Assembly: GCA_905215335.1 (NCBI GenBank)
Contig: CAJMPQ010000001.1
Span: forward strand, 157,383 to 221,382
From: an uncultured bacterium
GTDB taxonomy: Bacteria > Cyanobacteriota > Vampirovibrionia > Gastranaerophilales > Gastranaerophilaceae
Reading direction: 5' to 3'
Length of the DNA: 64,000 nucleotides
Shown: in pieces, positions 8,247 to 56,162 of the stretch
Position numbering within the stretch: position 1 is the first letter of the stretch
How the letters are laid out: every line of letters begins with the position of its first letter
Program-made: the position numbers and the translations under genes
The notes under the pieces: generated by a model
Databases searched by the model: none
Told to the model about the DNA's origin: nothing
Seen by the model: only the letters and a program-made list of their open reading frames with translations

Positions 8247-10634
8247 ATGAAAATTCAAAATACATTTTACCCCAAAACAATAAATACATATTCTCAAAAT
8301 AATATAAAGAAAAATAATAATATTACCAATAAATATACAACACCCGTATACGTTAATAAATATGAGCCAAATACATTCCATCCAATAGCTTTTGGCGCAA
8401 TCTATAATGTTAAACCTAAAAAAATAAATATTGATATTGAAAAAAATAAACTTCTAAAACAAATTTCTGAAATGCTAAGTTCAGAAAATACAGCTTGTGA
8501 TGCGGAAGATTTTTTAACTAACTCACTAATGTCAGCACTAAATAGTTTTAGAGCTGCATTAAAAAAACAACAAATTATATTGGAAGAACTTGAAGCACTT
8601 TCTATTGCCAAAACAATGAATATGCAACAAAAAATAAACAAGTTAAACCAATTAAAAAAAGAATTAAATCTAACTAAAAAACAAGCCAAAGTAACTATTA
8701 ATAAAAAGCCTTCAGAAAAAAATGAGGAAAAAATAGATTTTCAGTTACTTAACAAATTTAAATCCGCAATATTAGAAGATAATTTCAATTTAAAAGATAT
8801 TTTAAAAAACCACTATAAAATTCTAAATAATATAACATCAACAGATTCATTAAAAAAAATGTTTCCTCATATAAAACTTCCAAAAAATCCGGTTGATGTA
8901 ATTGCTAAAAAAGTTGAAGCAATTCTTACAAGAAATTTCTATGAAACAATGGATGATTTATATGAGAATAAAAAAGAAGAAGAACTTTATAAATTAGTTG
9001 ATGATGTTGTTCAAGAAACAGCTTACTTTATTGGAGATAAATTCAAGCTTGAACCAAAAATAATTTATAATAAAATTGCAGCAACAACTCATGATACAAT
9101 TATAAAAAAATACGCAAAACTAAAGGTTGATACTGGATTTTCATATATCCCAGAACAAAGAAAAATTAAAGCACCACAAATTACAGAAAACGATGCTAAA
9201 CTATTACAAGTAGATTTTAATGAATTTGTATTATCTGTAATAAGAGATCAATATGTTAATTTTAAAAACTTAAATGAAATTAGTTATTCTGATGGTAAAA
9301 ACATTATCAATTTAAGTTCAATTAAAGACCCTGATTACAAATTTGAAAAATTCCCTGAAAAAATAAAACGTATTATTTCTACAGGGGAATCACTACATAA
9401 TGCCCAAAGAGATTATGACAACTTTGATACAAATGAACTAAAACAAAGATTAAATTTCTACGCGAATTCAGAACTAGGCAACAATGAAGCAATTCTTGAA
9501 CAAATCATTAATTTTGACACTTGTAACTTTGGAAAAGAAGACACTAAATATGCCATTAGATTTTTGCAAGAACTAGATTCTATTGCTGATAATAAAAAAA
9601 CTGTAGATGAAGTATTAAATACAATCGCCACAGAAGGTATAAAACCTAAAGAAACTGAAAAATTAAACGAATTAGAAAAACAAAAAGCAGCTGAAAAATT
9701 AAAAGCTGAACAGAAAAAATCTTTTGAACTAAAAACCCTAAAAAACAATTTTGATAATGCAATCAATATTTTATACAATAACAACTTAAATAATATTGCA
9801 AATACTTGTTCTAAATACCGTCCGGAAAACCTTTCTGAGCAGAATGTAGAAAAAGCAAATTATATTATCAAAACAATTTTAGAAAATGTAAATCCTAATA
9901 ACGAACAACTAAATAAAGCGAAATTAGAAGCAAACATTACAAGATGGGATACTTATAATTATTATCAAAAAAATGATAAAACTAACCCTGTTTTCAAACT
10001 TGCTCAACAATACGCTAAAGACGAAAACGGCTCAATTGATATTAATAAAGCTGGTAAATATATTATCAATAGCGAACTTGTTGAAAATTATCCCGCGAGT
10101 GTAGAATTCACAAGATACCCTGAAGTTCTAACAAAAATAATGGAAAGAATTAGCTACGACAAAGAAGAAGCTGTAAAATATTTATGCAAATTTGATGAAT
10201 ACACAGATTTAAGCTCTTCTGAAAAAACATACCTTGCTAATTTTATCGATAAATTTGATTTAAAAGATCATATTGATAAAACTATTTTAAAATATATTAT
10301 TGAAAATGATTATATTAAAAATGATACACTTGTACAAACAAATATCAATAGCAAAAGTGAAGAAAGTTTTACTTCCGCAATTACATCTAGCGCAAAAGAA
10401 GCTATTCTAAGTAAGTATAAATATCCAATTTGCATGGAATATTTAAAAGGTTTTGAAGATGCTCTTTCTTCATTAGCATCTGCTGTTGGTTCTTCTGGTA
10501 TCAAACAAATGGGAAGAAACAACAAAGCTCTTGAATACAAAATGGAACTTAAACTAAAAAATCATGATGATAGATTATTCTCTAGCAAAAATGATTATTA
10601 CTTTGATATCTTCTCCGACAAAGGTCTTCATTAA
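8247..10634 (+). CDS. Large hypothetical protein (795 aa), N/K-rich, with the N-terminal leader-like motif
   Basis: Long uninterrupted ORF with ATG start and a hairpin terminator right after the stop. No family is recognised apart from a weak HigB/RelE-like pattern in the last 50 aa or so (see findings). Confidence 0.8.
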   Translation: MKIQNTFYPKTINTYSQNNIKKNNNITNKYTTPVYVNKYEPNTFHPIAFGAIYNVKPKKINIDIEKNKLLKQISEMLSSENTACDAEDFLTNSLMSALNSFRAALKKQQIILEELEALSIAKTMNMQQKINKLNQLKKELNLTKKQAKVTINKKPSEKNEEKIDFQLLNKFKSAILEDNFNLKDILKNHYKILNNITSTDSLKKMFPHIKLPKNPVDVIAKKVEAILTRNFYETMDDLYENKKEEELYKLVDDVVQETAYFIGDKFKLEPKIIYNKIAATTHDTIIKKYAKLKVDTGFSYIPEQRKIKAPQITENDAKLLQVDFNEFVLSVIRDQYVNFKNLNEISYSDGKNIINLSSIKDPDYKFEKFPEKIKRIISTGESLHNAQRDYDNFDTNELKQRLNFYANSELGNNEAILEQIINFDTCNFGKEDTKYAIRFLQELDSIADNKKTVDEVLNTIATEGIKPKETEKLNELEKQKAAEKLKAEQKKSFELKTLKNNFDNAINILYNNNLNNIANTCSKYRPENLSEQNVEKANYIIKTILENVNPNNEQLNKAKLEANITRWDTYNYYQKNDKTNPVFKLAQQYAKDENGSIDINKAGKYIINSELVENYPASVEFTRYPEVLTKIMERISYDKEEAVKYLCKFDEYTDLSSSEKTYLANFIDKFDLKDHIDKTILKYIIENDYIKNDTLVQTNINSKSEESFTSAITSSAKEAILSKYKYPICMEYLKGFEDALSSLASAVGSSGIKQMGRNNKALEYKMELKLKNHDDRLFSSKNDYYFDIFSDKGLH

Positions 10635-10640
10635 TTAATA

Positions 10641-10673
10641 AAAAAAGATGTGAGTAATATCACATCTTTTTTT
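10641..10673. terminator. Bidirectional rho-independent terminator
   Basis: AAAAAAGATGTGA-gtaata-TCACATCTTTTTTT: a 7-bp GC-containing stem extended by an A-run/T-run. It sits between convergent genes ending at 10634 (+) and 10675 (-). Confidence 0.8.
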
Positions 10674-54905: not shown

Positions 54906-54911
54906 TTTCAA

Positions 54912-56162
54912 TTATTTTTCAGTTGAAAATGAATAAATAATTTCTCTATTAAATTCTTCGTTAGGTTTTAAAATACCTTTTTCTTCAAAGCTTTCAACAT
55001 TAATAGCATTTGGATAGAATTGAGGTTCAACACAGAAGGAAGAACGTTTTTCATATCTTGAACCATCTTTTCCATTTGGCTGAGTAGATTTACCTAAATG
55101 ATTTGCTGTATAGAACTGAAATCCCGGTAAATTAGTTGAAACTTTAAGATTAATTCCTGTTTTTGGAGATTTTACATTTGCAACTTCAACTAAAGTTTTA
55201 CCGTCATAATTATCTACACAATAATTTTGATCAAATCCGGAACCAATTTTCATCTGTTCGTGATCGGAATTAATTACATCACCTATCTTCTTTGGTGTTC
55301 TAAAATCAAAAGGCGTATTATCAACTTTAGAAATTTCACCTGTAGGAACAGCTATTTCGCTATTCACAGTATATGATGATGAATTCGGAAGAGTCACAAC
55401 ATGTTCATACACTGAATTTTCTTGGGTATATTCTGCACCATCAAGATTGAAATATGTATGATTTGTCATATTTACAATAGTATCTTTATCAGTCTTAGCC
55501 TTATACTGAATATGTAAATTGTTATCATTATCAAACTTATAAATAACACTTGCTTTTACATTTCCGGGATAACCACTTTCCATATCTTTCTTTTCATAAG
55601 TGAATTCTATCCCATCTTTTAAAACATTAGCTTTCCAATTCTTTGTATCAAATCCTTGAGTTCCGCCGTGAGAATGTGTTTTTCCATTATCTTTATTACA
55701 TTCTAGGGAATATTCATTATCTCCTAAAGTAAATTTTCCGTTATTAATTTTATTTGCATAAGGCCCAATAGTTCCACCAGCATGCCCAACCGGCGATTCT
55801 TCGTAAGGAGTAACACTATCATAACCTTGTGTTACATCTTTTAATTTCCCATCTTTATCAGGAACTTTAATTGATGTTATTGTTGCTCCATAAGTTGATA
55901 AATCAACACTTGCACCATTTTTATTGGTTATAGTATATAAAGTTGCATCTTCGCCTGATTTTTTTATTTTACCAAAAGACTTTTGCTCAATTTTAATCCC
56001 ATCATAATTTGAATCAATTTTCTTATCATCAACTTTAACGCTTTTAGTAAAAGTATCTTGAATTGGTTGATTTGCTATATAAACCTGATTATTAGATACT
56101 CTTTGAGCTACAGGACTACTAAAGTTAGTAAACATTACGTGTGGATTAAAATCTATAGGCAT
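54912..56162 (-). CDS. galM: Aldose 1-epimerase (galactose mutarotase) with a roughly 60-aa N-terminal extension
   Basis: HGGTQGFDTKNW, TNHTYFNLDG and FCVEPQ motifs of the mutarotase family. AAGGAG SD at the 416-aa start. The extension is MPIDFNPHVMFTNFSSPVAQRVSNNQVYIANQPIQDTFTKS... Confidence 0.85.
   Translation of the reverse strand: MPIDFNPHVMFTNFSSPVAQRVSNNQVYIANQPIQDTFTKSVKVDDKKIDSNYDGIKIEQKSFGKIKKSGEDATLYTITNKNGASVDLSTYGATITSIKVPDKDGKLKDVTQGYDSVTPYEESPVGHAGGTIGPYANKINNGKFTLGDNEYSLECNKDNGKTHSHGGTQGFDTKNWKANVLKDGIEFTYEKKDMESGYPGNVKASVIYKFDNDNNLHIQYKAKTDKDTIVNMTNHTYFNLDGAEYTQENSVYEHVVTLPNSSSYTVNSEIAVPTGEISKVDNTPFDFRTPKKIGDVINSDHEQMKIGSGFDQNYCVDNYDGKTLVEVANVKSPKTGINLKVSTNLPGFQFYTANHLGKSTQPNGKDGSRYEKRSSFCVEPQFYPNAINVESFEEKGILKPNEEFNREIIYSFSTEK

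Follow-up and report, generated by a model that had tools for sequence, protein, structure and literature searches.

A conserved N-terminal leader ending in a phenylalanine box on unrelated proteins of the Gastranaerophilales and its possible role in protein targeting

The stretch of DNA analysed here, referred to below as the window, comprises 64,000 nucleotides (GC content 27–32 %) from an uncultured member of the Gastranaerophilales (GenBank assembly GCA_905215335.1, contig CAJMPQ010000001.1, positions 157,383 to 221,382). Identical copies of its genes occur on gut-metagenome contigs and in assembly GCA_964326415.1, and homologues bear the labels Candidatus Melainabacteria or Gastranaerophilales. 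The Gastranaerophilales (Melainabacteria), a non-photosynthetic sister group of the cyanobacteria, are common uncultured gut members in humans and animals, and a large fraction of their gene content is orphan. An original prediction, made by reading the window alone, had proposed that about ten otherwise unrelated proteins encoded in it share an N-terminal motif. The eleven N-termini concerned (Table 1) read as quoted there, and the eight that our scorer calls in the window are all among them. We describe here this element, which we term the leader, its frequency and conservation in related genomes, and the functions that may be considered for it.

Leaders of the window and their architecture

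Table 1. Leaders in the window, with positions counted from the first nucleotide of the window
Protein	Leader coordinates	Strand	N-terminus and box	Score	Remarks
795-residue orphan protein	8247..8399	+	MKIQNTF...EPNTFHPIAFGA; 51 residues, box PIAFGA	19.4	No Pfam match
Kinase-like 304-residue protein	15877..15930	+	MNNISRKNQSTYTPSFQA; box TPSFQA	10.3	
GNAT-like 190-residue protein	16805..16828	+	MKIINFTG	13.1	Minimal leader
115-residue orphan protein	17385..17411	+	MMTNINFTG	2.8	Minimal leader
82-residue two-helix membrane protein	17781..17873	+	MKVQAINNN...KFNSVTLTG	0.8	Weaker variant
386-residue single-pass membrane protein	23410..23472	+	MVEVNRIGNYGYYPQATSFTA	9.2	
1968-residue orphan giant protein	29569..29613	+	MRIFNINIFNPNFKG	19.0	
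154-residue orphan protein	37603..37677	-	MNLGITNFNQNLNCNTYKANPSFGM	2.4	Gene at 37213-37677
306-residue helical protein	46548..46589	-	MKINSITMTRSFTG	at least 6	Gene at 45669-46589; sub-threshold MTP18 match
675-residue orphan protein	52878..52970	+	MLIQNIFSTNNYNNN...KKTNPYFTG; 31 residues	22.2	Highest score in the window
GalM (aldose 1-epimerase), N-terminal extension	56040..56162	-	MPIDFNPH...QDTFTKS	6.5	Weaker relative

Few of the proteins in Table 1 have a domain assignment in Pfam. GalM carries an Aldose_epim domain that begins at residue 75, the extension before it being lineage-specific, and the GNAT-like protein is a borderline match to Acetyltransf_10 (E=4.4e-5; 23.9 bits, with a cut-off of 23.6 bits). 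The MTP18-like body previously read from the translations corresponds to a Pfam match that does exist but lies below threshold. The other proteins are orphans, and for the 1968-residue protein no significant match was found in Pfam or among PDB sequences. The 386-residue protein has a transmembrane segment at residues 52–70. Two proteins had been set apart as weaker matches, and justifiably so: in the 82-residue protein the box is aliphatic, [VIL]-T-G, and abuts a Gly/Ala-rich hydrophobic hairpin, and in GalM the sequences MPIDFNP and D-T-F-T-K-S stand in place of F-x-G.

A consensus for the leader was drawn from 51 hand-curated examples belonging to about 25 families. It begins with a start element, M-[KRQ]-I-[NTQ]-[NSP]-[NIV], in which position 3 is I or V in 32/50 leaders, and ends in a box of the form [P/I/V]-[S/N]-F-[T/G/N/K]-[G/A/S], often with N, R or Q next; G or A occupies Phe+2 in 37/51. 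The box had at first been written as beginning [N/P/S]-x-F, and [P/I/V]-[S/N]-F-x-[G/A/S] replaces that form. Up to the Phe the leader measures 5–48 residues, with 18.6 % Asn, 3.0 % Asp plus Glu and 4 % Leu, and acidic residues, nearly absent before the box, are present soon after it. Two longer variants of the box recur, namely D-T-[VI]-S-F-G and [FY]-[TN]-P-x-F-x-[GA]. Start element and box are coupled, in that proteins with I or V at position 3 and no acidic residue in positions 2–12 tend to have a Phe box downstream (odds ratio 5.8, p=2e-7). A role for repeated boxes in multivalent binding was rejected, as additional boxes occur at chance level (mean 0.18 per leader, 0.15 expected); the usual presence of one box would suit a single recognition or processing site. 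Starts of the same type are found on unrelated proteins of related loci, as in MKINQLTSATPHVSTANQQAFTGR, MQIANNINNFNNVNFQGKKKK and MLNNISPIAFNGL, and also in MKISNNYNQ...CDTVSFTGN and MFIHPITARF...QNPISFAGDD.

N-terminal enrichment and conservation

The frequency of the leader was assessed in the window and in about 1.9 Mb of fetched DNA, in which genes were called with a simple purpose-built caller. This DNA comprised 80 species-level Gastranaerophilales loci around the family of the 306-residue protein (1.4 Mb), seven loci around distant members of the kinase-like family and 22 metagenome loci. Internal-Met pseudo-starts, internal windows and versions of the box in reversed order or with Tyr or Leu served as controls. 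In the window, a scorer trained only on leaders of unrelated families in other species, with a cut-off of at least 6, called 8/60 proteins (those at 52878, 8247, 29569, 45669, 16805, 15877 and 23410, and GalM), and 0/198 pseudo-starts scored above 2.9. In the held-out loci L087-L115, a scorer combining start, spacer composition and box, trained without the kinase-like family and applied with a cut-off of at least 8, called 39/367 proteins (10/160 families) and 1/1243 pseudo-starts. In the first 80 loci together with the window, 104/1323 proteins and 25/391 families scored at least 8, compared with 2/4265 pseudo-starts. The N-terminal excess over internal-Met pseudo-starts was thus at least 100-fold in three data sets, two of them held out from training, which bears out the expected enrichment over controls. 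The leader is carried by 35/551 families (about 6 %), by roughly one protein in ten across the bacterium of the window and its relatives and by 13–17 % of the window genes; 42/81 loci encode a leader protein besides the anchor family.

Counts at the level of families point the same way. In a family-weighted scan of all tripeptides, FTG was the most enriched at N-termini (9.6 versus 1.9), and a matrix seeded from the window and applied to families with no window member reached at least 8 bits in 6/337 N-termini and 1/883 internal windows. When each family was represented by one randomly chosen member, [SN]F[TGNKSQ][GA] was present in 5.1 % of N-terminal and 1.2 % of internal windows (4.2-fold, p=3.5e-5), and with [PIV] before it in 2.8 and 0.35 %, respectively (8-fold); the reversed-order, Tyr and Leu versions showed no N-terminal enrichment in these family-level windows. 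A crude early rule, F-x-[GA] with no acid before it, gave about a twofold excess over shuffles and spurious open reading frames and was replaced by the scored models. Bcp (DFKGK) and the cupin (AFKAG), which had been named as background occurrences of the bare tripeptide, are indeed not called by the leader scorer.

These figures bear on the possibility that the leader has no function and reflects AT-rich codon bias on fast-evolving orphans, combined with post-hoc picking of a motif or with mis-called starts. The low GC content of the genome (27–30 %) is compatible with such a reading, MKI starts are common on the housekeeping proteins of the window too, the bare F-x-[GA] is enriched only about 1.5-fold, and some of the consensus was refined on these very data. 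Unseeded expectation-maximisation on N-termini likewise did not recover the box, converging on generic helix-like patterns; the motif is short and borne by too small a share of the proteins for such a search. Yet codon bias or selective picking would explain neither the near absence of false positives in the held-out comparisons nor the flat controls, and the Phe of the box is retained where spacers have diverged completely (see below). Moreover, the codons of the box differ among window leaders (TTT/TTC, ACA/ACC and GGA/GGT/GGC), so that conservation acts at the level of the protein, and a GGA/GGAG Shine–Dalgarno-like site lies 6–11 nt upstream of most of the eleven starts, those at 15877 and 52878 being without one. 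We therefore regard the absence of function as largely refuted and a purely compositional artefact as very unlikely.

Orthologues retain the box. For the 306-residue protein, 162 homologues were found, of which 115 were full-length, with 92 distinct N-termini compared. Among the 115, K or R occupies position 2 in 93 %, I or V position 3 in 96 % and T or N position 4 in 90 %; a Phe lies within residues 6–20 in 97 %, mostly at residue 11 or 12, and is followed at Phe+2 by a small residue (A, G, S, T or N) in 94 %. Only 7 % have an acidic residue ahead of the Phe, whereas such residues are common four to six positions after it. Contigs L014, L038, L040, L051, L054 and L080 bear this Gastranaerophilales-specific family and are labelled in GenBank as Methanomethylophilaceae, Bacteroidaceae, Acutalibacteraceae, Muribaculaceae or Brachyspira; they are probably mis-binned or mislabelled. 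The kinase-like family has 51 homologues, and in an alignment of 36 members, extending down to 33 % identity, F16 is one of 22 invariant columns; distant members read NISFDGYKS, NQPSFGMKVS and NQPNFEGYYRS. The Phe is retained among orthologues down to about 31–33 % identity.

The same pattern, in which the box is kept and the spacer has diverged, was seen in the 675-residue (52878), 154-residue (37213), GNAT-like (16805) and 115-residue (17385) families. Nine orthologues of the 675-residue protein conserve M-x-I-x-N-I and [VSY]-F-[TEG]-[GA] with different spacers, and the orthologue of the GNAT-like protein in L094 starts MNNKINFNG. Two proteins with low scores, those at 17385 and 37213, are supported in the same way: the former scores low because its MMT start is atypical, and its orthologues read MNNISFNG and MNNNVTFNG, whereas orthologues of the latter conserve PSFGMA or SASFGMA, the PSFGM of which is also present in P0320, a distant member of the kinase-like family. 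Orthologues of the 82-residue protein conserve N-[ST]-V-x-[VIL]-T-G-Y. A likely orthologue of the 386-residue protein in L097, assigned by synteny and reading only, has the Phe (KYAFVD) but lacks the G/A. In GalM, MP[IV]DFNP is found in 22/22 orthologues and D-T-F-[TVI]-K-[ST] in most, a 60 %-identical GalM has NDVSFKGK within the extension, and the nearest homologues outside the clade begin at about query residue 57–60 or bear a Sec or lipoprotein signal at that place.

In AlphaFold models, the leader lies in segments of low predicted local distance difference test (pLDDT) score. The 306-residue protein is modelled as an all-helical fold, which gave no clue to function, with pLDDT <50 for residues 1–27 and 29–90, including the whole leader. 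In the kinase-like protein, whose fold has a mean pLDDT of 90, values <50 are found at residues 1–6 and 11–16; the invariant Phe is in the second of these stretches and the fold starts about five residues later. A Phe conserved in such a segment beside a folded domain is what would be expected of a linear motif read by another protein. The leader is predicted to be disordered, and it is an add-on to domains that are found without it elsewhere.

Cargo, neighbouring genes and comparison with known signals

The bodies to which leaders are attached are diverse. Among 20 leader proteins sampled from related loci, 15 had no Pfam match and the remaining five matched HNH (two proteins of one family), an Eco57I/MTS-type methyltransferase, Phage_30_3/NADAR and DUF2023. 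Other cargo includes a 733-residue ankyrin-repeat protein, a 461-residue AAA ATPase, an aminotransferase fusion, HExxH proteins and single-pass or hairpin membrane proteins. For the kinase-like protein, Foldseek returned weak protein-kinase-like matches, namely choline kinase, Legionella Lpg2603, aminoglycoside phosphotransferases and Rio kinases. Gly/Ala-rich, weakly hydrophobic two-helix hairpins follow soon after the leader in the proteins at 17781-18029 and 45669-46589 of the window and at 13806-15245 of L024, a layout that recalls the bilobed hydrophobic domains of chlamydial Inc proteins.

Leader genes also cluster. Four lie in succession at 15877-18029 of the window, the kinase-like gene first, and all four recur in L094 and at least three in L096. 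In an island shared by L087, L092 and L093, 8/9 genes (7465-19587) have a leader or a Phe box, and four of these eight score at least 8; its content includes a 695-residue aminotransferase fusion, a kinase-like protein and the ankyrin-repeat and AAA proteins mentioned above. One flank of the island has defence-type genes (PDDEXK_GAPS4, SLFN/AlbA_2) or an integrase together with a KAP NTPase. A search beside leader-gene clusters for a secretion ATPase, a secretin or a peptidase found none; near clusters, L090 and L091 have a TolC-like gene, and L087 and L092 a radical SAM gene, whose presence is probably incidental. Within a run of orphan and leader genes beside the kinase-like gene (L088 6848-8368; L089 790-2310) is a gene for a 506-residue protein with Phage_lysozyme and faint LysM matches, which has neither a leader nor a Sec signal.

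Several features of the window adjoin leader genes. On the strand of the 154-residue protein gene, and between it and ftsZ (35521-36672), is a gene (36790-37161, - strand) for a small HExxH protein (YAHEMAH) with a precomputed Pfam match to the SprA-related family PF12118 and no NCBIfam match. Three tandem Peptidase_M10 (matrixin-like) genes at 50443-52138, each with a classical Sec signal, also adjoin leader genes, an arrangement kept in most related loci (e.g. L001-L006, L017 and L029). A GC-rich hairpin followed by a run of T (AAAAATCCCCTTGAGGGGATTTTTT; 52830-52877) ends 13 nt before the ATG of the gene at 52878, and the mechanical list of open reading frames begins this gene, which lacks a Shine–Dalgarno site, at an upstream TTG (52854) inside the hairpin.

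The leader as a sequence feature appears to be undescribed. The statement that no signal of this form was known still stands, since N-termini of ten window proteins gave no match to NCBIfam models at E<=1 and nothing comparable was met in literature on Melainabacteria motifs, Gastranaerophilales secretion systems and sorting signals. It was also correctly noted that the leaders are neither Sec nor lipoprotein signals: a Kyte–Doolittle scan revealed no hydrophobic core in or adjoining any window leader, true Sec signals being present on other window proteins, and in no window leader does a Cys follow the G/A of the box, whereas a real lipoprotein in L039 reads ...AILFTGC. No window leader has Arg-Arg before the end of the box or a hydrophobic region after it, as a Tat signal would, the Arg-Arg of the protein at 23410 lying two residues past the box.

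A closer resemblance is to class III (type IV prepilin) leaders, which are polar and basic, end in Gly or Ala and are recognised at the cytoplasmic face. Seventeen genuine pilins in the related loci all read [GA]|[FY][TS]LAE[VI], followed by a hydrophobic helix; the mature N-terminus is nearly invariant, FTLAEVLITLGIIG, in L010, L011, L052, L078 and L081, and several have unusually long polar leaders of 23–47 residues, as in type IVb pilins. The leaders described here share the terminal Gly or Ala (37/51) but, apart from the hydrophobic segment of the 17781-like family, lack the helix (FTLAEV...) and the Glu at +5, that position being mostly Lys, Ala, Asn or Asp. The likeness to double-glycine leaders, which serve C39-type exporters and are common in cyanobacteria, lies in a non-hydrophobic N-terminal leader, Sec-free export and a small residue at the processing site. 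There is, however, no Gly-Gly in the present leaders, position -2 being the variable, mostly Thr residue at Phe+1, nor an L-S-x-x-E-L-x-x-I motif; they are acid-free (Asp plus Glu 3 %) and rich in helix breakers rather than amphipathic acidic helices, and their cargo reaches 1968 residues.

These comparisons bear on the possibility that the leader is a pro-sequence that is removed, prior to or in the course of export, by cleavage on the C-terminal side of the small residue of F-x-[G/A/S]. Candidate peptidases would be the prepilin peptidase of the type IV pilus system, which seemingly is present in every genome studied here, or that of a C39-type ABC exporter. The small residue at Phe+2, the onset of acidic residues soon after the box and the single box per leader would suit such a cut, as would the pilin-like abutment of box and hydrophobic segment in the 17781 family and the long polar leaders of true pilins, in which a Phe lies two or three residues before the cut in 7/17 (e.g. 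MCLRFKG|FTLAEV). A PilM-like gene, assigned by reading its translation only, lies in the window at 60656-62407 (- strand); the 583-residue PilM-like protein is followed by a 195-residue coiled-coil protein with one transmembrane segment (60044-62407 for both genes, - strand), the window containing no other pilus genes. Nevertheless, the hydrophobic helix and Glu+5 of prepilins are missing outside the 17781 family, as are the Gly-Gly and acidic amphipathic helix of C39 substrates, no peptidase gene is linked to leader genes, and the YYKS after the box of the kinase-like family is conserved with the box as one block, which would be unusual for a cleavage junction. We consider cleavage of this kind improbable.

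Other candidates were rejected on simpler grounds. An internal ribosome-binding site within the F-[TK]-G codons would require a start codon at the right spacing, which is absent, and FQA, FGA and FGM are not Shine–Dalgarno-like; the N-glycosylation sequon N-F-T fits only 2/9 boxes; and cleavage of the type that Prp performs on ribosomal protein L27 found no parallel, as L27 in L049 has no N-terminal extension. A subset of leaders with D-T-[VI]-S-F-[GT]-G (the HNH family and L079 2830) may resemble the TonB boxes of group B colicins, pesticin and TonB-dependent receptors, i.e. [DE]-T-hydrophobic-x-V-x-A in a disordered N-terminal region, on nuclease-type cargo. In most leaders, however, the acidic residue and Thr are missing; moreover, TonB boxes function in the target cell's periplasm, and it would not make sense for core membrane proteins to be bacteriocins. 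Chloroplast transit peptides (FGLK-type, and those of red algae and glaucophytes with their Phe) are similarly acid-free, disordered, rich in hydroxylated and amide residues and equipped with loosely conserved motifs that contain Phe, and they too are uncharged or basic extensions added to otherwise ordinary enzymes in a cyanobacterial lineage; this is an analogy only, there being no organelle, no Toc/Tic link and no shared sequence.

Signals for type III secretion offer a further parallel, as they are extreme N-terminal, disordered and non-hydrophobic, are recognised in the cytoplasm and are borne by diverse effector-like cargo that is often orphan and that includes membrane proteins of weak hydrophobicity. 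According to rules derived for Pseudomonas syringae effectors, position 3 or 4 of these signals, which are not cleaved, is aliphatic (or Pro), acidic residues are absent from about the first 12, and the N-terminus is polar and disordered; the leaders likewise are polar and predicted to be disordered (pLDDT <50), favour I or V at position 3 and avoid acidic residues. Early substrates of the flagellar apparatus have two separated elements, an N-terminal signal and a Phe-containing gate-recognition motif, and the leader similarly pairs a start element with a separate Phe box. There are differences: type III signals are not known to have a conserved box, whereas [PIV]-[SN]-F-x-[GAS] is common to at least 35 families, and the gate-recognition motif is F-x-x-x-hydrophobic at a constrained distance, whereas in leaders the +4 residue is hydrophobic in about 35–40 % and the distance is 5–48 residues. 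Homology to the N-terminus of flagellar rod proteins was rejected, as ten leader segments had no Pfam match to Flg_bb_rod (PF00460) even at E<=10 and the residue before the Phe is Ser or Asn in leaders, not Gly.

Possible roles in targeting or docking and the flagellar export core

Because the leader combines an N-terminal position, disorder, avoidance of acidic residues and an aliphatic residue at position 3 with mostly orphan cargo to which it has been added, we rank Sec-independent targeting first. Our tentative working hypothesis is that the leader is a Gastranaerophilales-specific, Sec-independent N-terminal targeting signal, perhaps for a flagellar type III export core. The signal would be composite, consisting of the start element, a disordered, acid-free spacer of variable length rich in Asn, Gln, Ser and Thr, and a usually single Phe box. 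Recognised in the cytoplasm, it would direct a large set of lineage-specific proteins along a pathway independent of Sec; these would include small hairpin membrane proteins, a GalM and proteins of the kinase-like, GNAT, HNH, ankyrin-repeat, AAA and HExxH types. The view that a common tag on heterogeneous cargo looks like an export, sorting or processing signal is upheld as regards the tag and its mostly orphan cargo, and the proposed role itself is consistent with the sequence data.

As the receiver of such a signal, a flagellar-type III export core would be the most likely choice, and yet that the flagellar export remnant specifically plays this part is doubtful. Full flagellar gene sets were reported in only 3/9 Gastranaerophilales (Soo et al., 2014). 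In four genomes listed in Table S5 of that study (G. phascolarctos, Zag_1, Zag_111 and MH_37), FlhA, FlhB, FliP, FliR, FliI, FlgB, FlgC and FlgG were present in 4/4 and FliE and FliJ in 3/4, FlgD/E/H/I/K/L, FliC/D/F/G/M/N and MotA/B being absent and FliQ also listed as absent (Soo et al., 2014). This set, kept by non-motile Gastranaerophilales, amounts to an export gate, an ATPase and a rod with no hook, filament or motor. In the same table the core is missing from the Obscuribacterales (Soo et al., 2014); the Caenarcaniphilales possess it. Zag_111 corresponds to our locus L029, in which the leader is present on the 306-residue family.

Several points weigh against the favoured hypothesis. No flagellar gene was found in the window or in about 1.9 Mb of related loci, either with regular expressions for flagellin and rod motifs or by tblastn with fragments of E. 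coli FliP, FlhB and FliI. With FliF, the C-ring, the L and P rings and FliQ listed as absent, a working channel across both membranes is doubtful. To our knowledge, classical type III signals have no sequence consensus, which makes a conserved Phe box atypical, and a spacing of 5–48 residues does not fit the fixed ruler of flagellar early substrates. AAA ATPases, an aminotransferase fusion, a methyltransferase and proteins with faint helix–turn–helix matches are cargo that ordinarily stays in the cytoplasm of the producing cell, and the Lys clusters before the helix in single-pass members suggest that the leader remains cytoplasmic. The 306-residue family and a 479-residue family, being core, syntenic and membrane-embedded, would better suit a housekeeping interaction in the cytoplasm than the export of effectors.

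The sequence data would be accounted for about equally well by a motif for docking or degradation in the cytoplasm. In that case, to which we give some weight as a possibility, the leader would be a short linear motif that docks many proteins onto one partner with no export involved. Candidate partners would be scaffolds, membrane-associated complexes, chaperones and protease adaptors, the leader acting as an N-terminal degron in the last case. Conservation of a segment predicted to be disordered is as expected of a peptide ligand, and the typically cytoplasmic domains of the cargo, its inclusion of core syntenic families and the lack of secretion genes beside leader-gene clusters agree with docking, as does the Lys-rich stretch between leader and helix in bitopic and hairpin members, which suggests that their N-terminus is inside. 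Docking would, however, leave unexplained the extreme N-terminal site and the M-x-I-x-N start (internal cases are at least 100-fold rarer), the avoidance of acidic residues and the export signals found at the same position of GalM in relatives. Moreover, a partner for about 6 % of protein families has no known precedent other than targeting and degradation systems.

If we return to Sec-independent targeting and take it to its fullest extent, a stripped flagellar type III core would have been kept as a dedicated exporter and the leader would be the consensus secretion signal of an effectorome amounting to about 6–15 % of the proteome. We think this unlikely. Were it true, kinase-like, ankyrin-repeat, AAA, HNH, GNAT, metalloprotease-like and Inc-like hairpin proteins would be aimed at the cell envelope, at neighbouring microbes or at the host. 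It would also provide the first type III-type signal with a readable consensus, and a free-living parallel to the flagellar remnant of Buchnera. Gut Gastranaerophilales have so far been viewed as plain fermenters, mostly non-motile.

The leader extends from one window to a whole bacterial order, and as a readable tag it places a large share of orphan proteins in a single functional class, membership of which is predictable from sequence alone. If it is a cytoplasmic docking or degradation tag, it would point to a hub that binds about one protein family in 16. If it is an export signal, it would define the secretome or effector set of a bacterial order and make sense of the reported but puzzling partial flagellar gene sets of the Gastranaerophilales; it would then also be a rare Sec-independent signal with a consensus, which could serve engineering as well as phylogenetic profiling aimed at the machine that reads it.

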